Counted from the first letter of the whole stretch, positions 1-63,991 are shown. The stretch is DNA of 63,991 nucleotides, filler included, from Asterionella formosa (GCA_002256025.1; 8 parts of 8 records of this genome joined end to end with filler, not necessarily neighbours in it); one strand, 5' to 3'. Program-made: numbers and translations. The notes: generated from the letters alone by a model not told the origin.

Positions 1-492
1 TGGTGATACTCACCATATGCAGTAGCGGCATGGGTGGGTCTTGGTCAGATTGTGAGGACGAGTTAAATTCATTTGACTTTGGCTTGCCAGATTCCAACAT
101 TGAAGTATGAATATCAGTGATCTGTGATAGGGAAACCCTGCGGGAAAATTTGGCTAGTTGATTGTTGTTGCGTGTACTGAGAAACCAACCCGAGAATGAT
201 GAGCAGCTGGAATTTTCCCAGAAGATTCTACCATGTATGTACAATGGCAACAATTTATTTTTGACACCGATAAAAGCCATAATATCTATTACATTTCATG
301 ACCTCCATTATGAGCTACCGGTAGTATTGTAGTAATACTAGTCTCGAGACAACAAATTCACAAACCTCGGCAAACGACTTGATAGACAATTCTTATACAA
401 TCAACCTGCAATGTCAAGCAAAAACGATCAAAATGTCCTGTTGTAAACGCATGTGCAATATGGACATACCTGTACTTGACTACCGGTACAGA

Positions 493-570
493 GGAAGGTC
501 CGGTAAAACACTTTTTACTTCAGAAAAGATAAGATTAAGTAAGCTAAATATCTCGATCACCGGACATTCC
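493..570. mobile_element. Tiny MITE (family A, GGAAGGTCCGGT TIR) with 5-bp ACAGA flanking duplication
   Basis: GGAAGGTCCGGT ... ACCGGACATTCC termini (1 mismatch); ACAGA at 488-492 and 571-575; an inverted homolog lies at 43338-43402. Confidence 0.6.
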
Positions 571-706
571 ACAGAAGCTGATACCAGGTAGACCAGACGT
601 CCAAATTTACCGGTACTTCAAGCAAAATCTTGCTTAAATAGTCCTTCGTCATTCATTTGTACATGCTGCCTACGTCACTGCATACGGAAAGAAATTGAGC
701 TCCAGG

Positions 707-3700
707 TGAAGTATCTAACTAGAAGTAGAAGTATTTGTTGATTTTAGTTTATCATTGTGTGCAACTCGTTCACTCTCCCACACCAAGGGAAAACCTTTTA
801 CCTTTGAAAAGGTTTGATGCAATGAATATTGATTTGTTCCGTAGTATGCATGGTTTGTTGAAAAGTAACTATAGTACCATTGGCATATACTTGAATATTA
901 GAATAAGGACCTCGTCCACAGCCACCCAAGGTACTAGTGGGATTATCCAATAGGATTAAAATCTCGTCACCAACTTTGTAATCACAAGAACATTGATGGA
1001 AATTAGCACAACGTAGACATTTGTCAATAATCACTTGTCAACATTGATATCCCGATATTAATTGCATATCTGTAATCAAAGGAATATTTAATATCATATC
1101 ATCTTGGAAAACCCAGCCATCTTCCTGGTGAAATACGCAATGTACTATAAATAGTAGCTCGAGCTCCATATGATGCAGCTGCAAAACATGTATCCACGAT
1201 ATTCTGAGCTTGAAATTCCTTGATTGGAGGAGATGAGCAAGCCTTTAACATGACTCGTAGACTGTTACTGATAGATTGATGTAAATGTTCACAGATCGCA
1301 TGCATTTGTTTGTGAATGATTGACTGTAATAGTCTCATTTTTAATTCCATTCAACACTAACATGTGTATGAAAGGAACACCAGTAAATTCACCTCCATTG
1401 TCATGTATACAACGTTCTGGACGGAGATATCTGTCCAACCAATCATTTTCAAATTTCATTGCAATATATTCTGATGACTTATTATTGATACGTGAAATTT
1501 CTGCCAAATTGGTGACCGTATCAATACAAGTTAGAGCACGAAATTCAATCGCTTGAGTAGCCACTGTTATCTTTTTCCATGGACCAATTAAATCTACTGC
1601 GACTTCTGACCATTGTAATCACAATGCATTCCTGGTGGAAGTTCACCAAAAACCAGCACCAGGTAATTTTGTACGTTTCGACATGCTTCATATATGCTTG
1701 CAATATGTTCCACTATTGCTTTTAATGGTGGACAATATAAAATGTGTAGAAATTGTAGCAGTTAATCTTGTCATGCCCACATGAGCTAACATCTGATGAT
1801 ACCAATTAATGATAGGATCCAATAGTGATGTAGGAATAGAAATATGCCAAGTATCTCCTGAATTCTTAACAAAACATATTAAATGTATATCATGAAAATT
1901 AATAGAGGGAAATTTTAATGGAAGTGTTTGTTGATTGAGAATCAATTGTATATCCAGCAATTGTTTATCATGTATTGAATTATAATCCAGAGGATATTGA
2001 ATATTGTCTGCCAAGATTAGATGATTGAGGAAACAGGTAAACAGAGGTTCATCATCTGGTAATTCAATTGAGAAAGTAGAAGTGGATGTTGATGTTGCAG
2101 ATTTCGGCCAAATATCATCCCCCACCGAAGACTCAAGTCTTGGGAGGCAAGAGATAGAATCTGTAATAGTTAGCATTATCAGTACCCTTCACATCGTGAA
2201 AAGTAAAAAAAAGATATTCTTCAATATAAAGCCTCCATTGGAGAAGACGTTGAGTGTCTGTGTAGGGTATCATAAATAAAAATATAATGCTCAGTGTGAA
2301 CATGTAGAACCACATTCAATGACATGGCGCGAAATTCTTTGAAAATATCTTAATTGAAAATCAGAAACATCAGTACAAATATGGAAAGGAAAATTACGAT
2401 GAAGATAACACATGAGTGTATCTGCAACATCTGCAACTAAAAATGCTTTCATTGATTCAAAAGCTTTTTGATGTATTCATAGGTATCCAGACAAATGGAC
2501 CAGTTCCATTTAAATCCTTTTTTAATTTTGAAGACCAAAATTTGAGGTCGGTTGGAGTTTATCAATATCCCAATCAGTCAGTTTCTTCAACAGACCATTT
2601 CATTTTGGAATTGTGCTTGATGACTTGTGGTTAAATAAATTTATTTCAGCCATAACAGCGCAACAGCGCGCAGCTTTGTTCCGTATCTGTATAGTTAGGA
2701 GCTTGAATGTTCCATGTGTAAACAAATTCCTTGATAGGTGTATCAAAATATAACAATCCATTGTGCAAATGTTCTGTGCGAATCATTATAGGAATGCATG
2801 ACATGCAGAAAAACACTGATATATCCACCATACAGACAGGACATGGTATTTGTAAATTATCCGTCATAAATTAATCAGCTGGACAAATGAGCAAACTCGC
2901 AGAAGGTACTAAGACCAGGTACTTCTGTTGCAAGATACAAGCTGACGGATTAAATTTTGGGAGCATCATGCTGAGTACTGCTGGCAAAGGAAGAAAAGAT
3001 GGGATCATACCTGCTATGCATGGTATATATTAATTATAAATGTTCGATTTACAACGAAATGTCCTGAAGTGCAATCCATTCATAAGTTAAAGATCAGGAC
3101 CCACCGCGATCAAGTAATATTCATCTTATGTCATGTATACACAACGCAGCCACCAATGCTTGGGTTGCTAATGACATGGGAATGAAATGCAATTAAGCTT
3201 ATGCATTCTTAGGCAAAGAAAGAATGAGACCGGAATCAGGCCTTGAGATGTGCATATGGAATGATATATTGAATCTACCTTTGCATTTTAAAATATCCCA
3301 TGCTACAATAGCGGTGATATCCAACCTGTAATTATCCTGTAAATAACAAATGTTATCCAGGTAATGATTGACATAAGAAATATTCAATGTGCTGTCACTT
3401 ATAATTTTATATATGTATATAGAGTAATAATTTTTAAAATCATAGCATTGTTGCTATTGTTGCACATACTTCTGTTAAGGCGATCTGTTCAGCATTCTGC
3501 TGATTTTTATTAGACACATAGGCCACTAGCTGACCAACAGGAGGGTTTATGACCACTAAAATTTCCTGGGCAGATTCATAAAAGTCGGCAGGTATGGCCC
3601 TTGGCACAGTATGCTAACCAGACATCATCATAGGGTTAACCCATGGATTTGCTTGTATAAATATGCACGGAAGAAAAACATGAATAAGGTTAGCTGTGTC

Positions 3701-5062
3701 AGTATGATAATTCCCTCTGCGTAGAATTTCCATGCCAGAGAGCAGGAACAGGGTTAATAGTGTTAGTAATGTTAACTAAATGGGGCTTATGTTTGACCGC
3801 TGTTTCACATCCCATGCGTGATCAGCTGCATTAAAATACATGTGTCCTGCCATTGCCACTTAGTATAAAATTATCATGTGCAAATTGAAGCTTGAAATTG
3901 TTGTTTTCTCGGTGCATCACAGGACTGCATTTAGCAATGCGAAGACGATCTTTTGTTGAAATTGACACTAGTCACGCTTGTTTTCTTGATGCATCACGGG
4001 ATTGTCTTCAACTTCAATTATTTATATACGATTTTGTGTTAGAAAATTGACACCAGGCACGCGCATTCTCTCGACATAACACGATTGCCTTCAGCAATGC
4101 AAAGTCGATTTCGGCTGAAGCTAGAACTCATGCTTGAGGATATGCTTGAGTTGATCGTTGCATGATTGGTGACTCTTGAAGTAAGTAAAAAAAACCCAAG
4201 TGAATCAATTAATTTGTGTTCTTTGCATTGTTCCATTCAAACACTTGTTGCCACGCGTTGTCAATAGAGCAAAATGACAATCAGCCTCAAATCTTTCTTG
4301 GCGGAGACCTCTTGATCTTCTGGATGAGGTATTATGAGTTTTAGGAACTTCTTTAAGGTCTCGAGACAGGCAGCAACATTCATCAACAGCACGATGAACG
4401 GTTTTATCGAGTATTATCAAAAAATCCACATCCACTGATGCTGACTCTCAAAGCAACATATCATGAGCACAATAATACTCCGGCCATCTCACCATGATTT
4501 TGTTGAGACTGTCATAGGACTGAGCATCTGAGTGTATTCCAACGCTCATCCAGTCAGACAAGGCGATATCTATAAGGCATATTCTGTAGCAGTGGGAGAA
4601 CAAGCAAGGAATCTGCTGGACTGAAGATATGCATATGTGTTAGCCATATCACAGGATTTACTGAAATCAATCAACAAGCTTCCCTAGAGCGTCAATCGAT
4701 CATATCTTTGTTGAAAGACTCCAAATATCGACCTGGCTTGTAAGGATACACAAAGAGGTCTGAGTCTTGATGTTTAGTATGTTGTTATCCTTCATCAATG
4801 GGACCACTGGAACTTGAGAGGACATCAACATTATTAATTCTAATCGGACTCTTTTTTGAAATCAAAGTGAAGTATCTAACTAGGAGTATTATTTTTTGTT
4901 GAATATATGAGCTTTTAAGTTAATCCTTGTGTGCAACTTGTTCTCTAAGTCGACACCAAAGTATACAATAAGGGTTAGTCGAGTTCTCTCATTATTGAGT
5001 TCTGATATATGTGATATAACACTAACCCTATATACATCTGCATTGATGTGGAAGATCGCTCA
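707..5062 (-). mobile_element. Full-length, decayed Ty3/Gypsy LTR retrotransposon with 5-bp CCAGG target-site duplication
   Basis: Homologous TG...CA LTRs at 4868-5062 (5' LTR) and 707-772 (3' LTR, internally deleted). CCAGG lies at 702-706 and 5063-5067. A purine-rich PPT (minus strand GGTGTGGGAGAG, 773-784) abuts the 3' LTR. Minus-strand pol fragments occur in RNase H then integrase order. Confidence 0.9.
798..2600 (-). pseudogene. Gypsy pol remnant (RNase H, integrase core and GPY/F domain), frameshifted
   Basis: Fragments RLLQWRLYIEEY, IINWYHQMLAHVGMTRL (integrase zinc-binding region), ALTCIDTVTNLAE, PERCIHDNGGEFTG and DYKVGDEIL...GPY...NGT...INIHCIKPF. No chromodomain follows before the stop. 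Confidence 0.9.
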
Positions 5063-6239
5063 CCAGGTACCAGTACACTCCTGCCATCAACAGTTGACCG
5101 GTTTTCATATGTAGCAGCATAATATAGGTTTGCTATTAGGTACATATGATATTAAGCAAAATAGCTATAGAAAAAACAATTGTAGAAACAATTCGAACTC
5201 TTCATCTTGCTTTGTTGTGCTACTATAGTGCTACTTTTATTTTTGAAGGCATATTCCATTGCTGTTCTTTTTGTCCAAGCAAGCTTGGTGGCAAACTCTT
5301 CTGACTTCTCTGCTTTACCAAAAGTCTTCATGGAGTGACATTAGGAATGTTCCCCAATCCCTGCCTTCACACTAGTGCTTGCCCTTTCCATAGCGTGCAC
5401 TATTGGATCAGACTCCTTGTTTGCAGATTTGGCTCCATTTAAATTATTTGCTTTCATTTTTGGTTGGTCTTCTTTGATTTTGCTTCATATACTCCTGAAT
5501 CTTGGTATATAAATTATTGAAATTAATTGTTGAAATACCGGTATCGTTGGTACATACTTCATTTGCATAAGGGTCATTCAGAAAATCTATTGAAATTTGC
5601 CCACAAGTTTTAGTCATTGTCAGAAAATTCTATTTTAGTCAGCAAGTTCTAGTTGATGTCAGAAAGTCCTAAACGTAGAATGACTCATATTTATATTCCG
5701 AAGCAAGACGACGGTTTGCTGAACCGGTTGATCAGGCAGCAAATCTGAGTCGTGTTCAGAGTTTGATTCTGCAAATCGTCATCGGTCAATGCGAGTAATG
5801 TTTTCCTAAATTACTTGAGGAATATTTTTCTGATCGAAAGCTGGCCTATCTCGGAGTCCAGCAGGCATGGGACAAATCATTGGGAGTGAATTTTGCACAT
5901 AAAAGGTGCGCTACCAGACCTTCCTGGAGTACTGGTACTGAATACACACACCATATCTTTGCCTCTCATTCTCCATGTTTTTCGAATCAAGATTCCCTCA
6001 GTCATCATTAACTGTGTCAATGTGGTCAGACATGCAGCATAGCATGGTAACTGTAAGTACTTTTACTACATTGAATATTACAATCAGCATAGAATTCGGT
6101 ATTAAGTGTAGCTAGCTAAGTTATGAAGTGTGACTGACTATTTGTGTTCCAGGTAATCTGGATCTCAAATGTTTCGGAGGACTCAAATATAGTTGTTCAC
6201 ACTGTTCTGACCGGGTAGGGCTGGGTGGGGGATCATGAA

Positions 6240-6470
6240 AAAATTGGCCCTGGCAGCTTGAAGGCCTTCCCATGGTCCAATTCAGTCCTATTTGCAAAAT
6301 CAATGAGATTACTATATCTGAGCCAGATTCACATACCAGTATGTAAACCCTTTCCTGCCACTTAGCTAGTCTACCGTAATCCTTCAACTGTCACAACCGC
6401 GTCCTTGCAGGACTTAGATGTGACGCACGGCCTATTGTTAGCATTTACTTCGGATCATGCTCGTCTGAGT
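6240..6470 (-). repeat. Dispersed repeat (unidentified decayed coding element), homolog at about 27850-28070
   Basis: Shared blocks such as GGCCTTCCCATGGTCCAATTC, TCCTTGCAGG..TTAGATGTGA..CACGGC.TATTGTTAGC.TTTACTTCGGA; both copies translate to SEVNANN(R/K)PC.TSK.CK and NWTMGRP. Confidence 0.7.
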
Positions 6471-6578
6471 TGAAACACAGAAGAACTCTTGATTCCTGAT
6501 TCCCAGTTAGGTCTCCACTTTGCGTGAAGACATCATTTCCATACTAGTCGTTGTGCTTGATGGAACAACGCACAATTA

Positions 6579-7061
6579 GATACCAAGGTTGATAACCTTC
6601 GCTCAGACATTTGATAAAGAACAATGGTGAAGGGCGAATTCTATCAAGTTTTCCCTATGTTTACCAAACAACTTGGTAAACACTAGACTAGGAATGATTG
6701 GAGAGACAAATCAATCTGTCTAAAGCATTGAAGAATAATCGAATCATCCTATTAAAGGATTGAGGAACAATCTAATCATCATATTGCAGATACCTGAAAG
6801 AAGTATCTCAGTAGAGGAACATCTATGTCCTAGAATCTATCTAGGCTAGATGGATATATGTTACAAGGAAGAGGATGTAATCTACTTCGCTACAGCTGTA
6901 GGAACTACGAAGAACCTCGCCTCCAAGGAACAAAGAACAAATTCATTTCAGAAACATGTAGGAGTTGCCATGTTTCAATCGAAACTACATTTCAAAATTA
7001 CATTTAGTTTAAGCTCACTCTTTTAGAAAACACACAAGAGAAACTACTAAGATTGTCAACA
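6579..7061 (-). mobile_element. Probable Copia-like 5' LTR plus tRNA-iMet primer binding site
   Basis: On the minus strand it starts TGTTGACA (7061), ends TATCAAC(C) at about 6587 and is followed by TGGTATC (6585-6579). No internal coding region was recognised. Confidence 0.5.
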
Positions 7062-7195
7062 GAATATTAAAATCGTAAATTGTACTCCGTACTCATACTA
7101 CTCACCGAGTTGATTTCTAACTGTCTGCACCTATTTCCTCATTGGCGTTAGCCATACATCGTCTCACCAGCAGGAAGCTTCATAACCGTCAATTG

Positions 7196-7650
7196 TGTAC
7201 CAGGATACCAGGCACCTTGTTATCTGGTACCCTGGTACCTGGTACCAGATACTCCTTTGTAAGCAAGGTTAGCTACCGGTACAAGGTACCTGGTACCTGG
7301 TACCAGATATCTTGTACGGAGTAACTGTTCCATCAGGGACTGCAAGTTGCGGTCATTTTGCTTAAACTAACATTTTAATCTCGGATGAAGATAGCTAAAT
7401 CTTTAGTTTCAGCAAAATTACCGCAACTTGCTGTTACTGGTAATGGTACCCCCGGTATTTTGGTACTCACCTGGTTACTTGGAATGGCATCTGGTATCTG
7501 GTATCTGAGATACCTGACACGAGTACAGGTACTTGTACCAGGTAGCTCCCCAGGGACCTGGTACCAGTTAACTGTACGCACCCGGTCCTGGTGCCAGGTA
7601 TGTGGTCCCTGGTGTCTACCAGAACCAGGTACTCCGCCCAGGTGATCCAT
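7196..7650. repeat. Degenerate (TACCAGG/CCTGGTA)n palindromic array
   Basis: Runs such as CTGGTACCCTGGTACCTGGTACCAG and GGTACCTGGTACCTGGTACCAG; the array lies upstream of the ATG at 7826. Confidence 0.85.
7343..7430. mobile_element. 88-bp MITE (family B) with 27-bp TIRs and 3-bp CTG duplication, possibly PIF/Harbinger-like
   Basis: CAAGTTGCGGTCATTTTGCTTAAACTA ... TAGTTTCAGCAAAATTACCGCAACTTG (2 mismatches); CTG at 7340-7342 and 7431-7433; second copy at 43130-43217. Confidence 0.8.
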
Positions 7651-7825
7651 TAAGTTTACTCCTACAGGGCGGTGTAATTACCGTACATAGCCATATTATC
7701 ATAAAGAAGGTGAGGTTTAATAATAATAATAATACTGTACCCCCGTACGCCCCCTGGGTATATCATATGATCACTCACTTATTTTCAAGGCTCTGTCTGT
7801 ATTCATTTGATTAGATCCAACCACC

Positions 7826-7947
7826 ATGCGCTCCACACAAACTTGCATTCTTTTTCTGGTCAGTCTTTCCCTCTCGTTGGCGTCTGCCAGAAAGATAACC
7901 AGTACTCCTTTGGATGCTCTTGATTACCGCATCTTTCCTCGACGGAC
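7826..7947 (+). CDS. 5' fragment of a secreted or ER-targeted protein, cut by the contig end
   Basis: CCACCATG context; MRSTQTCILFLVSLSLSLASA signal-peptide-like start; open to the gap. Confidence 0.45.
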
Positions 7948-8560: not shown

Positions 8561-9211
8561 ACAAATAACAGAATGATAAGAACGGCCCTAACTAACGAAG
8601 AAAACCCTTTCAATGACCTCACGTTCTGATTGGATTCTATATCTCATGCATCCAGAATCAGCGAACCGACGTTTGATGGTCGCAGGTGATACTTGTACAT
8701 AACTCGTGAGTATTTAGACGATGCCAATTTGTCTGCAGATTTACTTGTAAAATTACCGGTGGTACCTGGTAGTTAAGTACAGTTACTGAACTAACTAAAT
8801 CCATACTGTACCTGGTATACAATATATAAACATGACTACCGTATTACCATACTATCCACACAGGAAACTCATGCATAAAATCATGTTTGCCTGTACACGT
8901 CGTCACTGTAACTAAACAAACTCTTTTTTGTTTGCAGTCGATTTCTCAGGTGAATCAGATTGTTATATCGGTATACCGTATATATCTGAGGTAGAGAGAG
9001 AAATCAGAATACCGGTAGTTACCAATTGTTTCAGCATTATATATAATCCAAGCGAAAGCCAACTACCGGTAATAAATAGTACATGATAAAAACAGAGAAA
9101 ACAAGCAAGGCATCGCGTTCAGAAACGTGCCACGACAAGTGGACAAGCAGCAAAATTTATCTATAAACCATCATAAGGCTAGTACCGTCGACTACTATAG
9201 AACAGCCGACG

Positions 9212-16884: not shown

Positions 16885-17175
16885 GGTAGTCGGAGTAGTA
16901 AACTAGCAGCAGAACACCATATGTTCAGGGCTGTTGCTACTGCAGTGGGACAGTAAATCATCATAGTTTTAGGATCGTATGATCCTAAAACTAAAAACCA
17001 ATAGAACACCATATTTTCAGGACTGTTGCTACTGCAGTGGGACAGTAAATCATCATAATTTTAGGATTGTATGATTGTGAAACTGAAAAGCGGTAGTCGG
17101 AGTAATAAGCAAGCAATAGAACACCATATGTCTATGACTGCTGCTACTTCAGCGGGACAATAAATGAATTTAAGA
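16885..17175. repeat. Three imperfect tandem units of about 92-115 bp
   Basis: AGAACACCATAT...CTGTTGCTACTGCAGTGGGACAGTAAAT at 16911, 17003 and 17118 (third copy more diverged). Confidence 0.85.
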
Positions 17176-24102: not shown

Positions 24103-24909
24103 TGATTTCCAACCGGGAATAAACTATGGAGTAAAAATATTCTCCGGCCGAGACCCAAACGCTACAACAATTGCATACAAATTATCAGAATCAAGAACCA
24201 AATCTTTAGGGATGACATCCAACACACAGAGCACATGGGAAGGCAGGTCAAAGAGACTTCGAAATAAAAGCAATGATCATGCAATAAAAAAAAATTCAAA
24301 GAAGATGAGTAGAGGAGATACAAACCAAGCACACCGAGCAATATGCTTGGGGGCACAAATGACATATTCACTTCCAGTCACTAGCAGAATGAGCTCAGAA
24401 GAACTCGAAAATATTCAAAGAAAAGCCAGAAGAGAAAGGCCGGCTGGGAAAACTGGGATTCAACCAAATTGTTCCGAAAGCTGTTGTATTTGGTCCAAGC
24501 ACAAAAGGAGGATTGAAAATGGTGGATTTGGCGATATTAGAGCAGGGTATATGAGCCGCAGAAAACTTTCTTTTCCACAAATATGCAAACAATGAATTCA
24601 CGAAAAAATGGACATATCACCGCAGATAAGTCAACTTGAATCTGGCAGAACGGAAAGACTTCGTTTCCTTGCTTATTCTCAAAATTTAAGATACATTAGT
24701 ACCGTTGACAGTAAAAATCAAGTTGATCAAAGCACATCAAGAAAATGGAACAGCAAAGGAGAAACACACAATATCCGCAGAAATGAACATCACAGCGGAT
24801 GCTATGGAAATCAAACTTTCCGCAAAGATTAACATCGGCAGCAACTGGGGGGGGGNNNNNNNNNNCCCCCCCCCCCACACCCCCCCCCCCCCCCCCCCCC
24901 ACCCCCCCC

Positions 24910-24953
<44 letters not shown>

Positions 24954-30523: not shown

Positions 30524-31228
30524 GGCTGCTGGTTATGATTGTTGTGGTGACGAGGGGACGATGCGATCTTCTCGGATCATAGGAGGATCGTTTTCTATAC
30601 CTACCGGTGTATAGAGAGTATACATATGAACTACCGGTATTGCTACCGGTAGCAACAAATGACGATTCTGGCTGGTGGTAGATTCCTATTAATTTTAGTA
30701 CCTGGTGTGGTACCATCCGTTCTGTCAGTACCTGGTACAAGGTACCTGCTACTAGTATCAGTTTGTACAGTTAGTACAGGGATTACTTACTCTGAGGACA
30801 AATCAATGTCGTCCGCCTACATACGGTAGATACTGCTACATGCTATAGTATTTGTACCTGCGATATGAAATCTGCCTACCGGTACATAGTGAATTTTTTA
30901 GTATAAATAATCAAGGACCGATTATTGTGGAATTCCCATGATGGCTGAGATGGAATCAATTTTGGCTCGTGTGACACATGTAGATTCCATATTCCATCGT
31001 CATCATGCTACCAGAAGCTATCTTACAGCACCGGTAGACTACCGGTAATCTAGCTACAAGATCATACCTGATGCGTGGATAGCGCCCTTCTTGCTTTGCT
31101 TGCAACAAGAAAATCTTATTACTCTACCTTTTGCATGTCATTCTCTACGTTTATGCGGAAGTCCTCCTCCTCCTCCTCTACTATAACTACTACAACAACT
31201 TATAGAACTTACCGATCATAGCTGTACA

Positions 31229-32006: not shown

Positions 32007-32599
32007 NNNNNNNNNNNNNNNNNNNNNNNNNNNNNNNNNNNNNNNNNNNNTTAATTAATTAANNNNNNNNNNNNNNNNNNNNNNNNNNNNNNNNNNNNNN
32101 NNNNNNACATACGACTCTACAATCAACCGGTCTTGGCAGGTAGGACAACTATCATGACTGTAGTTGAATTCGTCATTACCATTGTCATCATTTTGATGTG
32201 TAATTTCGCTCATGGTTGATTGTTGCTTTTTTTTGTTTCTTACCAGTAGTCATCAACAATATTTGCCATTCTGCCAGCTCGTCTGACACATATATGTTGA
32301 TTGTATGATAGGGTATATAAACATTGAGCGATGGAGAACGTTTATGTATATATTTATTGAATTCGAAAAGGAATCTATGTATGTACGCGCAAATTTCCAG
32401 TGATTCAAATATTTCAATTGGAATCACGTCATTCAAAATTAACTCATAAAAATTCTTAGTTCCAGGGAATTTCGGCAACCCTAAGCAATATTTTATTTTT
32501 TGCCCAGGGGTTCAAATGCAGGAACCTTAATAGGTATCACGCTGTACTGGTAGACAACCAGGTACCAGGGTACCACATTCATGTACCATTGGAACCAGG

Positions 32600-32796
32600 T
32601 GAAGTATCTAACTAGAAGTAGCAGTATTTGTTGAATATATGAGCTTATTTGTTAAATTCTTGTGTGCAACTAGATCTCCTAGGTTGACACTAAAGTATTC
32701 AAGAAGGTGTTAGTCGAGTTCTCTCCTGATAGAGCTCTAGTATATCTATGTAAACCTAACCTTATAGGTATATCTGTAGTTGAGCAAGATTGCTCA
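32600..32796 (-). mobile_element. Solo LTR of the same Gypsy family, with CCAGG target-site duplication
   Basis: TGAAGTATCTAACTAG...GATTGCTCA is colinear with 4868-5062; CCAGG lies at 32595-32599 and 32797-32801. Confidence 0.9.
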
Positions 32797-33989
32797 CCAG
32801 GTACTCGGTCTGCAGCAGTGGTAGACTACTTCATACCTGCAGGTAAGGAGAGGAAGGTGCGAGTGATGGGACAACAACAGCAGGTGAAGGATGGAAGTCT
32901 GAGCTGCTCGTTTGTTTTGTTTTTGGAACTACATACTTGGGTTGTACTCACAGAAGATTGAGATGCAATGTCTCCTAGTTTTGAAAGTAAGGTGCATGAC
33001 ATCAGCAAGTCGATTCTCATCTTGGAAGAGTTTTGACTTCTGACTCCCTAGAATTATTGGTGGTAGCAGGAGTGACAAGTATGCAGAATGATGATTGAGA
33101 GTCCAGAAATTCCTCAAATGTGTTGTTTGAAGAAGTTTTCAACAATTAACAAGTTGATGAACCAACAGAAATGATGCAGGATGTGCATCGAAGACGTAGG
33201 AGGGAGAAAGCAATTCTGTCAGTATTGTCAGTATTGTAGTCTATCTGTTGCACCAAAAACTGTTTGTTGTTTGTAAGGTGGCTAAAAGTGTTACAAGTGT
33301 TGTGCAAGATAGATTAAGAAAGGTGGTGTATTGTTGCTTGGCATCTGATCAAAAAAATTCGTTATATCATCTAACAATTTTGATAAATGCCCTTGTAATT
33401 TAAATAGTAACCCTTTTGACTATGTATATTTAATTATTAGATGTATTGTTTCTATTAGATTCCTGTATTCGAATTTCTTGGTAGGATAATGTACCAGCTA
33501 AAATAATGTAATTTGGCTCATCATCTCCATCTGTCATCACTCCGATTTTGCAACAACAACGAAATACTACCGGTACTTCGTGATGACAAGTGGAATGAAT
33601 GTTTGCGATAGCGTCTTCAATTGTTGGTCAAGTGATCATTACATCTTTGAGTAATCATCATGTGCAGTGAACCTATGTTCATAATCATTCAATTAAGAGT
33701 TTACAGAGAAGAAATCATTCGAACTCAGAATGGTTCCACACACAGCGAAAATACTAAATCCGTTTCATCGACCATCAGCGTGACAATCTCGCAAATCAAC
33801 CCGTAAACAAACACATTCAACTTGTTTTTCTTGAAATTTTCAATTCTCACCCTATACTACATCTACTATTGAGATTCAGCACAGAAGGTGATACGAAAAT
33901 GTAACAGACTACTGTCCACATAGCTATAGTTATAGAATGATTCAGATTACAATTTCTTTTTCATATAGCTCGTTTCCGCATTTGGGATG

Positions 33990-34520
33990 CTGTACTTGTA
34001 TTCACTGTTGAAATTGTCTGCGTCTTTGTTAACATAAATAGAGCGATAGCAAGTGGATCTCTTCATTGTTGTCTGCTCATGGAAAACCCACACAGTATCT
34101 GTATCATCAACAATAGAGGGACAAATGTCCTTCATCATTATCATTGTGGTTTGCTGTATGAAAAACTTGATATCCATGTAGTCATTTGCTTGTTGGAACT
34201 GTCCATGGACTCAAACCTTCTAAATGTGCGCGTACACACACTGTCGACTTGTTTTCATTGGTATGTTGTTCTTGTATTCACTGTTGCACTTGTCCACATC
34301 TTTGTTACCATCAATAGAGCGACAAGTGGCTCTCTTTATTGTCGTTTGCTTCTGAAAAAGTCGGTGTCCGTGTCATCATCAATAGAGGGACAAGTGTCCT
34401 TCATCATTGTGGTTTGCCACTGGAAAAATTGGTACCCATATCGTCATTTGCTGGTTGGAACCACTGTCCATTGCCTCAAACCTGCTTAGCGTGTGTGTAC
34501 ATACACTGTCGAGTTGTACA
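33990..34520 (-). pseudogene. Two diverged tandem units of about 270 bp, probably a decayed ankyrin-repeat gene
   Basis: CTTGTATTCACTGTTG...AATAGAGGGACAA.TGTCCTTCATCATT occurs twice; the minus frame reads ANHNDEGHLSLY...HGH with stops. Confidence 0.45.
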
Positions 34521-35319
34521 TTACAGCAGTGACTTAGCTAAAGTGCGTGTTATAATATCATACTCCATAGTAAGATGCAGAATACAGTTCCCAATCAATA
34601 TTGAATGATTGATAAGATGATAATGTGATATTACAACAGAGTTACTTTGGTACCTAGCTACATCACCAAAGTATGATACGTACTATTGAATAAAGTATAT
34701 CACATAGCTATGATACATTGATCATAGAACCATGATGATTTAATAAAATGTTTATGATATATTTTAAATCAAAATATGATCATGGTAAAGAAATACAACG
34801 ATAATAAAATACGATAAAATATGTATGCAAGTGTTATCAATAAACCATCATAGAAAATAAATAAATAAATAAATAAATCATAAAGTATATTAGTTGATAT
34901 ATATGTATTCGACTTTAAATATATACAGTAAAAGCAAATAGTTAATATGATAGTATTATATTGTGAATAGGATCCAAGTATATGGATGCGTTGATATGTA
35001 CATCACTATAATATGATTTGTGATATGGATTGATGCATATCACATACCGGTATCCTCTACAACCATGTCGTTTTTCCTTGTTAGAAACATGTACACCAGA
35101 AATGCATTGTGTTGTTTTAGCTATATATATGCCGGCATATGTATTGTGTAAACACTACGCTGGCGGAACATGCATATTACACTGCTGTGCTCTCTTCAAC
35201 AATTACTACACTCGGTTACCATCACACCAGCTGCACCTCCACAAGCGCCGCAAAAAGCTTGCTCTGCATTTCCGTTCCACTGTTTTACATCATAGTCTTC
35301 TGGCCCTTTGACAACTTTC

Positions 35320-37400
35320 CAAATGGCATTTCATGTATTTCATGGAAAGGATCAGTCAAACAAGAAACGTGACTTACTTCCGTTGTTTACACTACACGAC
35401 TTTATGTTTTTGGAAAAGAAGATGAAGAAACTTGTGAAATCAATAGAAGATTCCTATGAATACACTCATAGATCAGATGAATTTAAACAGATTCATAATA
35501 CTCCAGAAAAAATAATGGAGCAAGTATGCCAATTCAATAGTGGCAGAGATTGAAAAGAAGGAAATATTGCTTTCGAAGAGTTTGAAGAGGAAACCCAAAC
35601 AGTTGTTCTTTGCGGATGAAGACTCTATTCCTACAGAGTCACAGTTCCATCCACCAGTGTCGTATTTTGCTCCTCATTCTCCTGACATCGCTGATAATGA
35701 AGAAGAACTCAGTGAATCTCATTTATTTCATGAACAAATTCATGCGATGAATGAAAATATCGGCGGAAATGTGGGAGCCATCACTTCTGAAGTAGAAATG
35801 GTTGAAAAGTTGCAAAACCAAGAAATAGGTCTCACTATTCGTCCAGAACATCAAGATGAACATCATGAAAGCAGAAACTATTGCATTTCTAAAAGAAAAG
35901 CAAGATATTCAAGAAAATGTCGGCGCTAGATAAAGACCTCGAATTTAAGAACATCAATGCAGACAGAGATGTGATGCTGGCTAAGGCAGTTGATGCACTG
36001 AGTCGGGAACGAAGTTTGAAAATATTGAATCTTTTTCCAAATCATACATGGAAGAAAAAGATTAGAATTTCTTTGTAAAATCATCGAGAACAATCCCGAA
36101 GGCAGCTAGCTCTACACAAGAAATATGCAATCACGCCTCTGTATTTTATGAAGTCAAAGGTATCAAAAAATCATCTTCAGATTTTAAAGATCTTGCATGT
36201 TGGGACCTTGCTTGAAAAAATTACATCTCCATGATCCATTATATAATTCATGAACTTCATCCAACTAATGTAAAAGTTATATTTGATCTGGATGAGAACC
36301 CAGAAAAGGGTAATGACTAACCGTATATATACCAAGGTGATTGTCATCCACTTCATCATGACAGTAACTGCTGTATGTGCTAATTGTTTATTGCAAAAGA
36401 TCAGATGAGGAGGATAACAACCATTTTGTGCATTATCTTTTTGCTATAAATGATGGATTATGTCAAGTCTGTGACCCAGGAAAAGATGCAAGCTTGGATG
36501 AACATTATGATCAAGTATTTCACTTTGCTTGTAAGTGCTGCATCATACCTGGATGCACGAAACAATTGGAATTGTTTCGCACCAATACAGGATATCTTCA
36601 ACAAGAATCCCATACACCTAAAGAAATTGGTTTTTGGAATCTTTCCATACTTTCACCAAAGCACCATTGCAGTTCATTGTGGCCACTGAACATGACTTGC
36701 TCCATGATATTTCAACCAGAAGATGATAGTGGATGGTCATGTTGACCATTTACAATTGTGAAAGTGTTGGAAACTCTATTGCAACTAGAAAGGAATGGCA
36801 AAACCAAATTTCTTGGCAACCGGGCACAATTCTGTTTGGAGACAGATTCCTGGAAAGTTTTAAAACGTCAGGTGGTAGCAACTGATCGAAAAGATGAGTT
36901 GTTATTTGTTACATCTGCCCCACCAACCAAGAAGTCAACATACTTTCATCTTTGAACAGTTTGGCCTCAAGTGACAGCGACAAACATTCATGAGGATATG
37001 TTTCAGTTGGAAATAACTGTTCTTCGATTTTATATCGACAAAAGTTTGAGCTCCTCTTTAGATTTAAAAATGTTGAACGAAGTATTTGGACGACTTCCTT
37101 GCAATTCATCTTTCAAGAGGGATAATGTTGTCAACGTGAAATCCATGATCCAACAAATGAATGAAAAACTTGCTCCCTTCAAATGGTATAATCGTGCACC
37201 TCTTGGCCACATTTCTGGATGCATAAAAGTGGACAATAAGTTGAAAAAAATATTTTGTAAGTGATTATAGCCCTTCTGGAATCAAATTGAAACAGTTTAC
37301 AGACTCATTTTGAAATGCAGTTGAAAAGCGGAGAAGAATATTTCCAGACAAAACAAGGTGGACCATCTTTGGTTCTTTGGGAGTGAAATAAATATTTGAC
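35320..37400 (+). pseudogene. Second decayed copy of the unknown gene at 21828-24002
   Basis: Colinear, highly similar nucleotide and peptide blocks with different frameshifts and stops. Confidence 0.75.
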
Positions 37401-38278
37401 CATTGGGTGCATCTTTAGCCACCGGTATACAAGAATCTTAACAACTTTGAAAAAGTTAGATCTTCATGGCTCTTTACACTGAATCAAAATTGATTACTTA
37501 TTTTTTAGTAGAGAGCATTGTCTAACATACTTTTTGTACTTGCATCAGGTTTTGATTGATAAATTCCTGAAATAGTTCAGTTGGAAGATGGAGTTAAATA
37601 ACGGTGGCTTACAGTTCTTTCACTGGTACAAGGTCTGACTGAAGATACAAACACCTGGCTGTGAGCGATATCTATGATATGTATGATGGTTGCACTGTCA
37701 GCTATTGCATGAACTATGGAAAGAGTTATGGTGTCCCTGCAGGTAACAGGGGTACCCAGTCACACCATAACAACCAATCTAGACAATATTTTGTCTCTCC
37801 AGTCCGCCCAGTTGCATCATTGTTTGATTCATCAACCACATATGTAAATGCAGCAAAAACAGATGCCACAAAACATGATGATGTCAATTATATCATCATT
37901 GTTATGCCATGGGGCATCAACACCAACATCTCCCTGTCCCAGAATATAACCCATGCATGCAACTGTAAAGTTGATGTTGGCAGAAAATATGCATTCAATG
38001 CAGAGTCCAAACATGCAGATGGCATTCGCATGTCAACCACCAAATGTCCAAGATTTCTCCTCTGGATGTCCTCCAAAAGTTGGGAGTCAACCATTGATGA
38101 ATGATTATGAATTATGATGAAGAAGTTAAAATATTTTTTGGTTTACATCAGTCTAGTTCCTGAGTACATTCCAGGTATTACCAAATCAATGCAGAATGGT
38201 ACAATTAGTGTACTAAACCCTGCTGAAATGAACTATGAACAAGGAGCAAGCTTGGGATCCCACGGAACTATTTGTTCC

Positions 38279-39232
38279 TTAAAGGAGGAACACACTCCAA
38301 CCTTCGGCTCCGTCTCTCAATGGAGTGAAGGGGGTATCCTGCCACCACTTTGGTGGAGGTGCTAGGTAGCAAGGATCATCAGATAAGTTAATTCCTTCAA
38401 ATGCTTGACTCATTCGTATGGAGGAATAGATGACATTTTTGCCCCCTTGGAAGTCGCCAGCTCCAAGTCGCTCGCTTACGTTTGGGCAAAGCAACCCATT
38501 TATAATTTTCCAGGATTCTGGTATTGATAATGGCCATGATATGGTACTATTGCTACTCGCACAGCTTAGTATTTGCTCAATACACAATTTATCACTCTCT
38601 GCATGAAAGGGTGACTTTCCCATCCACATGGCATATAAAATGCACCCCAGAGACCACAAATCCACTGCAACTGTCAACACTTGCGACCCTCGCAATAGTT
38701 CTGGACTTGAATAGTCGGTGGTTCCTAACGGAATTGCTGACTTTCCCGTAGCAACCAGAATAGCTGACCCAAAGTCCGCTAGTTTTAGTTGGCCTGTCTT
38801 TGTCAGCAAAACATTTCCAGGCTTCAAGTCTGCATGAATTACTCCTTCCGTATGAATAAATTCGATTGCTCCAATTAGTTGCAAGGCAAGGTAAGGTATG
38901 CACTGTTGGAATTGTTCTTTGGCGCCATATGTGGCAGAATTTATCCAATGCATCAAATCTCCTCCTGTACAGCACTCCATAACAAAATAAAGACATTCCG
39001 AATCATGAAAGGAAGCCAGCAGTTTCACAACATGTCGAGAATTCCATTTTTGCAGCAATGCTTGTTCGAGGCGCACTTGATCAATCAACCCTTGACGCCG
39101 GATGATGCAAATCTTTTCCATTACTTTGATGGCCACATCTCTCCCGGAAGATTTCAGGCGTCCATGAAGAACGCATCCATACGCACCCTGTCCAATCAAG
39201 AGACCTACAAAGTACTCGGATGGAGCTGACAT
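38279..39232 (-). CDS. Ser/Thr protein kinase, PDK1-like (AGC), kinase domain only
   Basis: IGQGAYGCV, VAIKVMEK, HADLKPGN, DFGSA, GTTDYSSPE and DLWSLGCILY. Confidence 0.85.
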   Translation of the reverse strand: MSAPSEYFVGLLIGQGAYGCVLHGRLKSSGRDVAIKVMEKICIIRRQGLIDQVRLEQALLQKWNSRHVVKLLASFHDSECLYFVMECCTGGDLMHWINSATYGAKEQFQQCIPYLALQLIGAIEFIHTEGVIHADLKPGNVLLTKTGQLKLADFGSAILVATGKSAIPLGTTDYSSPELLRGSQVLTVAVDLWSLGCILYAMWMGKSPFHAESDKLCIEQILSCASSNSTISWPLSIPESWKIINGLLCPNVSERLGAGDFQGGKNVIYSSIRMSQAFEGINLSDDPCYLAPPPKWWQDTPFTPLRDGAEGWSVFLL

Positions 39233-39319
39233 GCTCGTCGTTGTTGGGGTGAGTTTAATGAAGTTAGGAACTATTGATGCACGATGACATGTTGAGCGAC
39301 ACCATCAGCTCTTCTAATA

Positions 39320-39440
39320 GACTACCTGATACCATGTACCGTAGACTACGACTACCAGGTACCGTGGTACCAGGCCAAGTATAATACCAGGTACCTGGTA
39401 CCAGGTACCAGATGGGGTACTGGTACCATCAGCCATCAGG
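39320..39440. repeat. (TACCAGG)n palindromic array upstream of the kinase
   Basis: TACCAGGTACCGTGGTACCAGG and TACCAGGTACCTGGTACCAGGTACCAG. Confidence 0.85.
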
Positions 39441-40199
39441 TAATGATTGTGCGACTTGGCTGCACAGTTTGTTGCATTTTTTTTCTGTACCGCAGGATGA
39501 TAAAGCAATTCCCGCTCCAGCTATCGTCTTGCCATTCGGGTACTTTCAAGTAATTTTTAGTCTCTAAGTAATTTCTTAAGTAATTTTTATTTAAGGGCAA
39601 TATGGGGCACATCGAATTTTTCGGCAATAAAATTGCCGATTTTAGCATGACAACCAAAATAACGGTAATATGCATGGAGATGGTACAACAAGCGTAAAAC
39701 ACACGAGAATGATTGTAACATGCAACATCAATGAAAATTGAACATGATGTTTGGAGCAACCAAAGTATGAAATGCGATGTAATAAGTAGCATCAAATGAG
39801 AAATAGAAAAAATTGTTTTGGGTTAGAAATGAAATAAAAAATAAGAGTTCCAATGGAGATGTATGCATTGTGAATCATTGTAGTACTTACACACCAGGCA
39901 ACATTGACTTTCCATCACCACACAATCGAAGACCAAAATAAGAAGGGAAAAGCTGAACCCAATCTTGACCTACATCGTTATGTAGCGTAAATGGTCTGGT
40001 TTCTGCAACCATGCGCATCGCTGTAGTAGCNNNNNNNNNNNNNNNNNNNNNNNNNNNNNNNNNNNNNNNNNNNNTTAATTAATTAANNNNNNNNNNNNNN
40101 NNNNNNNNNNNNNNNNNNNNNNNNNNNNNNAATTCCCAACTAATGCCTAAATTCACCACTAGTTAATTATAAGGACTCCTCTCTCAATAAACCTCATTT

Positions 40200-42629
40200 C
40201 TATTTGCCAGCAGCTTTGTCTGCTCTTGCCTTCGCTAGCATTTCTTGATATCTAGATGTTGTACCAGATGAAGTAGTAGCAACTGGTTCTGGAATACCAG
40301 TGCTCAATTCCTTGGCCAACATTCCCTTCATTTCATGAACTTGGTCCGCCAATTTTAACGCCTGATAGCGACATGAATTAGATGCGTGCATACAAAAAGC
40401 ACACACCTTCATTTCAAACTACATACATACCTCATTTGGACTCAAGTGTTTCAACCCATATTTCTCCACACCAGACGCAGCCTGCAAAGAATTATAAACT
40501 CCCTGTAGGAATTGGGAGTTAGCATCATTTCCACTGTAAGCAGTGGTTTTCACAACTTCTGCTACTGGTTCAGGGACTACAGCAGGTACAGTCACAATGG
40601 GAATAATCATAGCAGCAGGAGGAACAGGAGTAGCCACAGGAGCTGGTTGCGACATACCTCCAATGACTTGATCACATGTCGTTACTGAAGCAACCAACGC
40701 TGCACGGAGCGTAGGAAGCATCATAGATTGCATCTCGACTGGGCTGTTCTTGAACATGAGAACGGCTCCTTCGACACACGCAAGAGTTGCCATCATTTTT
40801 GATTCATCTGACGCTAAAGGAGAAGGAGGGGCTCCCGAATCTCCGATCACAGTAGTGCAGGTGTTAACTGCGACTAACAAAGCAGCACGAAGCGTCGGTG
40901 CCATAATCGGTTGCATCTCGACAGGACTATTCTTGTACATGAGAATCGCACCTTCCACGCAAGCAAGGGTAGGACCCATTGCTTGCGAAGCGCCCATTGT
41001 ATCAACAGCAGGAACCACAGCAGTAGGAGCAATAACAACAGGAGCCACAACAGGAGGTTGCACAGAAACAGAATCTGCTTCCCCACGTAAGCAAGTAATA
41101 ACATCTTGAAGCGTCGTTTGGAATGTAGGTACCTCCTCCCCACGAAGAAGACCAGATCCGAATCCAGATCCTCCGCGATGTTTGAGAAGCAATCCTTGTA
41201 ACTTGCGAATGTCTTGGCGAGATTCCTCAACGGTGCGTGCAGCGCGGGATTCTGAAACAATTGGGGAAGGCACCACCGNNNNNNNNNNNNNNNNNNNNNN
41301 NNNNNNNNNNNNNNNNNNNNNNNNNNNNNNNNNNNNNNNNNNNNNNNNNNNNNNNNNNNNNNNNNNNNNNNNNNNNNNNNNNNNNNNNNNNNNNNNNNNN
41401 NNNNNNNNNNNNNNNNNNNNNNNNNNNNNNNNNNNNNNNNNNNNNNNNNNNNNNNNNNNNNNNNNNNNNNNNNNNNNNNNNNNNNNNNNNNNNNNNNNNN
41501 NNNNNNNNNNNNNNNNNNNNNNNNNNNNNNNNNNNNNNNNNNNNNNNNNNNNNNNNNNNNNNNNNNNNNNNNNNNNNNNNNNNNNNNNNNNNNNNNNNNN
41601 NNNNNNNNNNNNNNNNTCCTAATGGTGCTTCTTTCTTTGCATTTCGTTTCATCTTTAGCTTGTCCTTGTACTTAATACCAGCACTTGTAACATCTACAGG
41701 TTGAACATTTTGCATCGTACTTCGAATAATGGCCAATTCTTCTGCCACCGTCCCCATCAACGCCAATTCTTCTGCCGTATCTTCTCTATAAAAAAAAGCT
41801 AATTTTGAGACAAACATATAAAATACAAACAGACGGCATACCGCATAAATAGCCAGAAATGAACTTACTTTTCAAGATATGGATTCGTTGTAAGGGTACT
41901 TGCAATTTCCTTCACGGTAGCGTCTTCAAAGACAGCTTCCGCTTTGTCCAAATCTCCTTCATACCTAGCTCTAGTACGGACGGTAGAATCTCGTTTGAGT
42001 TGTGCTAAATACAAATCTCCTGTATTGGCAATCGTATCAGCATCACGATTCCGTCCAACCTTACGTCCATCAGGTGCTAACCCACCAGGTAATACCTTAG
42101 GTCTTTCTTCCGGATAATAGTCTGTATTGCTTCTTGTGGGTAATGATGATGATGATGATGGTGCAGTATTGGCCATGAATTGCCGAAACAAGGCAGCTTG
42201 TTCCTCTGTCGTTAGTTTACTCAAATCTACCCCACCGGCAACAAACGACGTAGAAGGTGAGTTTTTGGGAACAATTGGTGGACGAAACGACGAGGACGAC
42301 GGCGATGCAACATTATAGTATGGATCCACAGAAGGACGAGGATTGCTGTTTTTGGCTTTGGCCATCATGTCTGCAAAACGAGATCCTCCCATGGATCCTT
42401 CATCATCAGGTCGTTTGATATTTTTAAAATCACCTTCTTTTGTGTCGTCCGGGGAAAGAGATGATAGGAAGGAATCATTGTCCCATCCAGAACCACCAAC
42501 ACTCAATCGAACCGTTGCTCGATGAGTGACTGTTGAGACGAAGTGTGGGAGTACTGTGGCAGAAAATGCCCCGCTAATGGTTGCTACCTGAGTAGCAAAG
42601 AGTGCAGTGGAGAACACCAAAGCAATCAT
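40200..42629 (-). CDS. Probably plastid-targeted hypothetical protein, multi-exon, spanning an internal N gap
   Basis: Signal peptide MIALVFSTALFATQVATISG|AF followed by a transit-like region. Exons 42629-41869, 41785-(gap)-40431 and 40361-40200, with GT-AG junctions. Contains a duplicated module TLACVEGA.LM.KNSPVEMQ. Confidence 0.7.
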
Positions 42630-43009: not shown

Positions 43010-43129
43010 GGAACTGGTACCTGGTACCTAGTACCTGGTACAACTCCCTCCCATGTACAGTAGGAGTACCTGGTACTCCTACCAGTTGCGGAGTACAAGG
43101 GTTCCTACCCCACTGGTGCCAGGTACCAG
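43010..43129. repeat. (TACCAGG)n array in a divergent intergenic region
   Basis: CTGGTACCTGGTACCTAGTACCTGGTAC, GTACCTGGTAC and CCAGGTACCAG. Confidence 0.85.
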
Positions 43130-47532: not shown

Positions 47533-47589
47533 GATATTTCGTCCCCCTATATCGATATTTCGTCCCCCTATATCGATATTTCGTCCCCC
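47533..47589. repeat. 21-bp tandem repeat x2.7
   Basis: GATATTTCGTCCCCCTATATC, exact copies. Confidence 0.9.
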
Positions 47590-48221
47590 TCTTTTTGATA
47601 ACCCCTTAAACCCTACTAGCCTACATAATCTTCGTATAAACCACCAATACTTTTTTGCCACACGAATCTTAGTTGACTCCTCCATGACACTTGCAAACAT
47701 GATGGAACTGGCAGCAGAAATATTTTCCGAACGGAAATTATTTCTGCTAGTGATTTACACATGCTGCTGGTGGGTCAATCTCATCGGACCAAAGCGCTGG
47801 CAGCTGACTTGCTTCGCATCACAGGCGATGGCAAGCCACAAAGAAGTCAACAGCACAACAACCCTGCAATGACGACGTTAAAGGACAGTGCTGGAAAGTT
47901 CATTTTTACGCCCCTCCAGGTGTATACACAATTGATCAGAAGACCCCGACGACAGGATTCGTCAACGTTGGGGACAATGACGGTAGTGATATCAATTCAA
48001 TCGACATTGACATTAGATCCGGCAGCTCGTTTAACAATGAGTTTGTAGACNNNNNNNNNNNNNNNNNNNNNNNNNNNNNNNNNNNNNNNNNNNNTTAATT
48101 AATTAANNNNNNNNNNNNNNNNNNNNNNNNNNNNNNNNNNNNNNNNNNNNTATACGTATACCCGGTATTCATCGCATCCTCCTCTGCCCCCGCATAAAAT
48201 TCACTCATTGGCTGTCTGTAG

Positions 48222-52524: not shown

Positions 52525-52595
52525 ACCGGTACCTCGTATCAGGTACCTGTACCTGTACCTGGTACCAAGTACCTGGTACCTGGTACCTGGTACTG
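52525..52595. repeat. (GGTACCT)n array upstream of MYB3R
   Basis: GGTACCTGTACCTGTACCTGGTACCAAGTACCTGGTACCTGGTACCTGGTAC. Confidence 0.9.
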
Positions 52596-60024: not shown

Positions 60025-60180
60025 TTACCAGGTACCGACGACCCACCCGGTAGTACGATACCTGGTATGAAAATGTGGGTGCGTGCACCGGAACGGTACC
60101 AGGTACCAGGTACCGTTACCATCCAGGTACCACCGTTACCAGGTACCAGGTACCAAGTTCTCCTACATACCTGGGACATG
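60025..60180. repeat. (TACCAGG)n array between divergent SEC63 and SerRS genes
   Basis: GGTACCAGGTACCAGGTACC and TACCAGGTACCAGGTACCAAG. Confidence 0.9.
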
Positions 60181-63799: not shown

Positions 63800-63991
63800 T
63801 TGGCAGTCCATTAGGAATTAACCAATAGCCTAACCAATCTGTCTCTTGGACCGCCCATTCACACTTAGATGGATCAATTGTTAAACCATTTGCCTGTAAA
63901 CGATGTAAAAAAGTGTCCAATAAATGAATGTGATCCGGAAAATTCATTGAAAAACAACCCACGTCATCAATATAAATTTCCACATCATCTA
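63800..63991 (-). mobile_element. Gypsy reverse transcriptase fragment
   Basis: EIYIDDVGCFS...LQANGLTIDPSKCEWAVQETDWLGYWL; homology stops abruptly. Confidence 0.85.

Follow-up and report, generated by a model that had tools for sequence, protein, structure and literature searches.

The retrotransposon family described here is of the Ty3/gypsy type and is represented by two insertions in a 63,991-base stretch of DNA, which was analysed at its full length and is called the window below. The window is a composite of about eight pieces of about 8 kb each, joined by blocks of N and the linker ttaattaattaa. A degraded element with long terminal repeats (LTRs) is located at 707-5062 in the piece 1-7947, and a solo LTR is located at 32600-32796 in the piece 32107-40030. 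Both are flanked by the pentamer CCAGG, from which an earlier note on this DNA had proposed that the family targets a repeat with the core TACCWGGTA. Together with further copies from metagenomes, these insertions make it highly probable that the family integrates by DNA sequence choice, with specificity for CCWGG.

Two insertions flanked by CCAGG

The features of both insertions are as follows, in window coordinates.

702-706, no strand: left target-site duplication CCAGG of the element, read directly, identical to 5063-5067
707-772, minus strand: 3' LTR in the element's orientation, truncated, keeping LTR positions 1 to about 78 from the TGAAG end (blastn and nhmmer against the LTR profile)
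773-784, minus strand: polypurine tract, GGTGTGGGAGAG in the minus-strand reading and CTCTCCCACACC as written (internal edge in nine metagenome contigs; L065 read in element orientation)
798-2188, minus strand: integrase remnant, frameshifted (Pfam and tblastn)
within 798-1037, minus strand: GPY/F-like C-terminal module, with the stop at 798-800
within 1289-1618, minus strand: rve core (Pfam E = 0.0048, below the curated cut-off)
within 1688-2188, minus strand: H2C2 zinc domain, Integrase_H2C2 (Pfam E = 0.002, below the curated cut-off)
2291-2606, minus strand: remnant of RNase H and the thumb of the reverse transcriptase (RT) (RT_RNaseH_2 at 2291-2476, E = 0.056, below the curated cut-off; short tblastn matches up to 2606)
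2607-4867, minus strand: degraded internal region in the place expected for gag, protease, and RT core, identifiable at the DNA level only (84-88% identity with metagenome copies)
4868-5062, minus strand: complete 195-bp LTR with TG...CA ends, the element's 5' LTR, 90-92% identical to nine metagenome LTRs
5063-5067, no strand: right target-site duplication CCAGG of the element, followed by TACC, read directly
32595-32599, no strand: left CCAGG duplicate of the solo LTR, bordering a CCWGG cluster (32558, 32565), read directly
32600-32796, plus strand: solo LTR, 197 bp, 79.5% identical to 4868-5062 (sequence comparison)
32797-32801, no strand: right CCAGG duplicate of the solo LTR, with TACT after it, read directly

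At all four window junctions CCAGG abuts the LTR ends, namely TGAAG at 707 and 32600 and GCTCA at 5062 and 32796. The first LTR bases at 707 are TGAAGTATC... and the last bases before 5063 are ...GATCGCTCA. The pentamers that the earlier note had placed on both sides of each insertion were thus found where expected (702-706, 5063-5067, 32595-32599, and 32797-32801), and its statement that the two insertions lie on different contigs agrees with their position in separate pieces of about 8 kb and with flanks that are not homologous beyond the duplicated site. Both right flanks continue with TAC, and therefore both empty sites rebuild to CCAGGTAC, the repeat unit, as had been proposed. No open reading frame (ORF) of at least 130 aa was found outside the element in its piece, nor any less than about 1.1 kb from the solo LTR, where the nearest gene start was sought.

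The element had been described as full-length, a description that has to be dropped: it is a degraded relic, with its left LTR cut to 66 bp. It codes on the minus strand, contains many stops, and has a longest open frame of 166 aa, and the intact gag-pol of an autonomous copy is absent from it. The left LTR stub joins the polypurine tract directly at 773, with about 120 bp of LTR missing. This part was evidently deleted, because in nine metagenome copies the sequence corresponding to 773-784 is the internal sequence after the GCTCA end. In intact relatives, the polypurine tract sits immediately before the 3' LTR. The left and right LTRs share 73% identity over 79 columns, the solo and right LTRs 79.5%. 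Both window insertions are old.

Further copies and the CCWGG target

Further copies were sought in a metagenome collection by a scan for the 16 bases with which the LTR begins (TGAAGTATCTAACTAG), a word that carries no information on the flanks. Among the 98 loci that matched, blastn, nhmmer, and direct reading separated 19 family members from 79 chance matches. The same 16-mer gave 8 loci in IMG/VR and 25 in prokaryote genomes, none of them a true copy, and no additional copies were found with nhmmer and the LTR profile in the window and the 98 loci. The 19 members fall into four sets.

L004, L005, L032, L033, L035, L043, L044, L056, L065 (nine): circularly permuted contigs of the order internal - LTR - internal, with both internal LTR edges
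L040, L059, L091 (three): contigs ending inside the LTR, with no outer flank
L066, L024, L068, L050 (four): host DNA after GCTCA, new outer junctions
L092, L014, L083 (three): host DNA before TGAAG, new outer junctions

A protein-based search of IMG/VR returned four distant relatives with 31-33% identity, all of them circularly closed contigs without host flanks and thus uninformative on target sites. These contigs (L099-L102) close on themselves with terminal overlaps of 87-123 bp. The circular permutation or closure of contigs could be due to collapsed assembly of multi-copy elements, to tandem arrays, or to one-LTR circles.

The seven new outer junctions read as follows, each with its pentamer in LTR orientation.

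L066: cctggtaccc, CCTGG
L024: ccaagttgac, CCAAG
L068: ccttgtaccaggtact, CCTTG
L050: ccaggtaacg, CCAGG
L092: ggagtacctgg, CCTGG
L014: atgttacttgg, CTTGG
L083: tacctggtacctgg, CCTGG

Together with the element and the solo LTR, both CCAGG, nine events are available. CCWGG is perfect in six of the nine, and the other three depart from it by one letter. At the central W, four events have A and five have T. These similar numbers indicate that the target is a palindrome and free of orientation. The identical orientation of CCAGG that the earlier note had seen is real for the two window copies, but it is a coincidence that does not extend to the family.

The internal edges read ...ttcaaag/TGAAG and GCTCA/ctctcccacacc in the nine permuted metagenome contigs and at the window's own internal edge. 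CCWGG is absent from them, and the pentamer is therefore host DNA and not part of the LTR. An alternative is that the LTR ends are misdrawn, with CC and GG belonging to the LTR as inverted ends GGTGA...TCACC and the host contributing little that is specific. Outer and internal edges do agree in the base beside each LTR end, which is G ahead of TGAAG and C behind GCTCA, and the LTR could be 1 bp longer per side with a 3-bp duplication CWG. However, the second base differs, being aG/TGAAG and GCTCA/Ct internally (15 edges on the TGAAG side, 9 on the GCTCA side) versus gG/TGAAG and GCTCA/Cc at the outer edges, and an LTR longer by 1 bp still rebuilds the same CCWGG empty site. This explanation is accordingly given very little credence.

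The earlier note had named two observations that would speak against targeting, CCAGG as a part of the LTR and heterogeneous flanks across many copies. The internal edges (caaag/TGAAG and GCTCA/ctctcccacacc) dispose of the former. As to the latter, the flanks of the metagenome copies are not heterogeneous: they show CCTGG three times and CCAGG, CCAAG, CCTTG, and CTTGG once each, against a CCWGG background of 0.0018 per position.

At the CCWGG frequency of the window (f = 0.00184 per position), six perfect pentamers in nine events have p = 3e-15. For the five new events that are clearly independent (L066, L024, L068, L050, and L092), three of them perfect, p = 6e-8. All seven new junctions are within one mismatch of CCWGG (f = 0.022), with p = 3e-12. 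The 79 unrelated 16-mer matches served as a negative control, and the five bases upstream of them never read CCWGG or a variant with one letter changed. The metagenome flank, 3,810 bp in total, holds 12 CCWGG, three of which are the junctions themselves; the background in these hosts hence appears similar to that in the window. Copies of the family are 8-25% diverged from one another, so that about half of the once-perfect pentamers are expected to have decayed, which fits the six of nine observed. Specificity that was nearly absolute when the copies inserted would be in keeping with these data.

Preference extends beyond the pentamer. An outward T at +1 occurs in 10 of 11 half-sites, versus a fraction of 0.51 for the remaining 232 half-sites of CCWGG in the window (p = 0.007). 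Outward TA is present in 8 of 11 versus 0.33 (p = 0.009), and outward TAC in 6 of 11 versus 0.23 (p = 0.02). Because of this enrichment, the preferred site is taken to be the longer palindrome TACCWGGTA, and the proposed targeting of TACCWGGTA arrays is supported by these half-sites and by the seven new junctions.

TACCWGGTA occurs 27 times in the window, clustered with a 7-bp period. Together with CCAGGTAC, it forms such clusters at 7197-7317, 39385-39411, 43014-43041, 52528-52593, and 60095-60155. The arrays of the 7-bp unit (GGTACCW, core TACCWGGTA) are located at the following positions.

7197-7317
7430-7660
8763-8817
30699-30737
39353-39411
43014-43125
52525-52593
60026-60155

None of the 27 copies lies inside an ORF of at least 200 aa, and such ORFs make up 33% of the window. 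For sixteen of the 27, the ATG of an ORF of this size follows 120-450 bp downstream; several are placed between divergent ORFs. The description of the repeat as promoter-proximal was therefore a fair one, and the heptad arrays look like an abundant promoter-proximal cis-element, as judged from their placement. A literature word search with the heptad motif (TACCTGGTA and the like) found only primers and no description of the repeat. At most insertion sites, further array units are found nearby.

Chance agreement of two events in DNA where CCAGG is locally common would be another explanation of the window copies. With 16 copies in the window, the longer word CCAGGTAC exceeds its expected number about 16-fold. 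The local enrichment of CCAGG assumed in the earlier note applies to the arrays, which are very rich in CCWGG, but not to the window overall, where the 60 copies (0.00095 per position) rank 458th among the 1024 pentamers. Coincidence is left with next to no probability and is effectively refuted by the seven further junctions, which were found without reference to flanks, and by the control with none in 79.

Read from these junctions, the family integrated with a 5-bp stagger across CCWGG, centred on W and in either orientation, and most of its targets were CCWGG sites within heptad arrays of (G)TACCWGGTA(C), which lie upstream of genes.

One of the seven junctions also bears on the solo LTR. 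Positions 1097-1696 of L014 are syntenic with the solo-LTR locus at 32274-33572, with about 700 bp absent from L014. Its flanks match 32274-32530 and 33368-33572 at 82-92%, and its 65-bp LTR stub is oppositely oriented. By sequence comparison, L014 may represent the same ancient insertion after inversion and deletion, or a related genome may have received a second insertion in this array.

Possible mechanisms of target choice

We lean towards the reading that the window contains two old, dead Ty3/gypsy insertions of a family that targeted CCWGG through intrinsic read-out of the palindrome by its integrase. A symmetric complex of integrase and LTR ends would read the palindrome itself, as the integrases of ZAM and gypsy do with CGCG and TATA, respectively. 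Such read-out would place insertions in gene-free, promoter-proximal arrays and not in coding sequence. Three properties of the target suggest this mechanism. The duplication matches the dyad of the palindrome base for base, both orientations occur, and the flanking TA is enriched symmetrically. A precedent also exists in the integrase of ZAM, which binds and nicks its CGCGCg target directly (PMC2527525).

A further argument for intrinsic read-out concerns register, and it also bears on the idea of regional preference with survival. According to this idea, insertions occur anywhere in open promoter-proximal DNA and persist in harmless arrays, and CCWGG reflects the composition of the arrays. 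In its favour, CCWGG is locally very abundant in the arrays, and all copies are old, leaving time for selection. Selection, however, cannot fix the register: even in a perfect 7-bp array, regional attraction alone gives the right register only about once in seven, yet five of the seven strict events are perfect (roughly 1e-3). Furthermore, the sites of the element (gagctCCAGGtaccagtac), L050, and L024 are outside perfect arrays. Regional preference is thus considered very improbable.

Tethering is the main rival of intrinsic read-out. In this proposition, a host DNA-binding factor on TACCWGGTA brings the integrase, and the geometry of the complex sets the cut at CCWGG. The arrays resemble protein-binding promoter elements, given their absence from ORFs of at least 200 aa and their frequent position upstream of an ATG, and array units are close by at most insertion sites. 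In Ty3, a tether can reportedly give near base-pair precision. A factor occupying the motif would nevertheless be expected to occlude its dyad and not to expose it. In L024 (CCAAG followed by TTGACG...), the nearest CCWGG is 395 bp away. The two orientations and the identity of the duplication with the palindrome core are as expected of a symmetric intasome that reads DNA, and we know of no tethered element with a consensus in the duplication itself. Tethering is regarded as possible and rather unlikely.

Several points weigh against intrinsic read-out or against the strength of the data behind it. No extra DNA-binding domain was seen in the integrase, and a factor bound beside the site could give equal precision, as TFIIIB does for Ty3. 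There are nine events in all, of which seven are solid. The two weak ones are L083, whose LTR is a mere stub of 22 nt (nhmmer E = 0.04), and L014, which is perhaps not independent of the solo-LTR locus and was not counted as clearly independent. Both copies of the duplication are visible only at the two window events, the seven metagenome junctions being one-sided, and chimeras can arise in metagenome contigs at the edges of repeats. All copies are dead, and the sample is therefore without de novo insertions. The CCWGG background was taken from the window and not from the metagenome hosts.

A bolder form of the favoured reading holds that the integrase is a reader of (TA)CCWGG(TA) of near restriction-enzyme grade, of independent, non-insect origin, which uses host arrays as landing pads. 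This is advanced tentatively, as plausible and somewhat short of probable.

Family relationships and implications

The pol remnant shows the order RT_RNaseH_2 - Integrase_H2C2 - rve on the minus strand, which is the Ty3/gypsy order; all of these matches are weak, and tblastn agrees with them. With the protein P0001 as query, tblastn identity is 68-78% across 801-2170. Protein similarity to relatives is confined to 801-2606 by tblastn, and none to gag, protease, or RT core was detectable in 2607-4867. The LTRs are likewise of Ty3/gypsy type, with TGAAG...GCTCA ends and the CCAGG duplication at both window copies, the element's left LTR being truncated. The pol frame stops at 798-800, after ...INIHCIKPFQR and 13 nt before the polypurine tract, which bears out the claim that the integrase ends after its GPY/F module without a chromodomain.

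Relatives were searched for with the C-terminal half of the integrase of L005, the best-preserved metagenome copy (177 aa). The search gave 79 relatives, whose Pfam sets (RVP, RVT_1, RT_RNaseH, RT_RNaseH_2, Integrase_H2C2, and rve) correspond to a Ty3/gypsy architecture. The Chromo domain of Pfam was found in none of the 79. Six relatives that were fetched end in ...RINIRR(I/L/V)KPY and two to three further residues, immediately after the GPY/F-type module, and the window copy and L005 likewise end directly after this module. The ending common to all eight is summarised as ...RINIRRIKP(F/Y) with two to three residues added. The family thus shares a Ty3/gypsy pol with a GPY/F module with the chromoviruses and differs from them in having no chromodomain. 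Full-length relatives have about 1,530-1,550 aa on contigs of 4.9-5.3 kb. These sizes and the pol stop 13 nt from the polypurine tract point to a single gag-pol without room for an envelope gene (env). Among the relatives, one alone has a named source, the diatom Amphora coffeaeformis (47% identity). The nearest ESM-Atlas clusters are labelled Bacillariophyta, a label for which the phylum is known from just one or two members. The host is therefore likely to be a diatom or something closely related to diatoms.

In the non-coding parts of the element, the sequence after the 5' LTR (CTTTGAATTCAAAAAGAGTCC) was examined for a tRNA-type primer binding site, and neither a TGG start nor a complement of at least 8 nt in the LTR was found. 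No tRNA gene was found in the window. In the same place (4840-4867 on the minus strand; 687-731 in L065), better-kept copies carry the 12-nt palindrome TTTGAATTCAAA. The gag-side region at 3882-4083 contains three diverged direct repeats of about 40-51 nt, which are 77-85 bp apart.

A second Ty3/gypsy RT fragment is present at 63804-63989 on the minus strand, with 53% identity to residues 933-994 of P0017. It runs off the end of the window, and its LTRs and target site lie beyond the visible sequence. Elsewhere, the window contains an 88-base run of C (90% matches) at 24866-24953, directly after a 10-N gap, and a 338-N gap at 41279-41616 inside a piece, both probably assembly artefacts. A 92-bp tandem repeat (1.9 copies, 90% matches) is found at 16911-17089, and a perfect 21-bp tandem repeat (2.8 copies) at 47533-47590.

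Errantiviruses carry env as a third ORF between pol and the 3' LTR. They are an env-bearing lineage of insects with a 4-bp duplication, whereas the family described here has a single gag-pol, no env in this position, a 5-bp duplication, CCWGG as target, and a diatom-like host. What it has in common with them is that the target is chosen by sequence and is a palindrome identical to the duplicated bases; in this it behaves as they do, without being one of them. In one review (PMC5408687), sequence-specific integration of LTR elements is stated to be exclusive to errantiviruses, with the palindromic targets TATA, CGCG, and ATAT. In the same review, the errantiviruses of Drosophila and their derivatives with two ORFs (ZAM, gypsy, Idefix, and 297/17.6) are likewise elements with Ty3/gypsy integrases that choose their sites strictly by sequence and whose palindrome equals the duplicated bases, and elements of the ZAM group are described as preferring repeats.

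Insertion at gene-free or promoter-proximal "safe" sites is also known from Ty3 (Pol III start sites), Tf1 (Sap1 and Pol II promoters), and Ty5 (Sir4 heterochromatin), with Ty3 being precise to a few bases. In these elements a protein sets the position, whereas in the family described here the duplicated bases themselves are conserved. To our knowledge, the bases duplicated by Ty3, Tf1, and Ty5 have no consensus.

Among diatom elements, those named GyDi are of the same Ty3/gypsy type, and the portion of the text of Maumus et al. (2009, PMC2806351) that deals with them reports no target preference. For the Copia-type CoDi groups, the same portion calls the duplications "quite heterogeneous" (PMC2806351). 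A literature search, covering titles and the openings of abstracts, found no report of a retrotransposon that targets CCWGG or of an insertion preference of diatom Gypsy elements.

Sequence specificity of this kind is rare for LTR elements, and the family very probably chose its sites by sequence. If this is true, it would be a second, independent lineage with sequence-specific integration, this time in a protist, with another palindrome and another stagger. Retroviral-type integrases could then evolve strict DNA read-out repeatedly, and the two lineages would offer a natural comparison for finding the integrase residues that set the target. A practical consequence is that, since CCWGG is duplicated by all copies of the family, two LTRs with identical duplications cannot be assigned to one insertion on that ground. 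A defined target of 5-9 bp would, moreover, make the integrase of interest for diatom engineering. The target coincides with an abundant, undescribed heptad repeat near promoters, and the element thereby marks a cis-element worth study. If the bolder reading is correct, the element and a cis-regulatory repeat of its host would be evolutionarily coupled.

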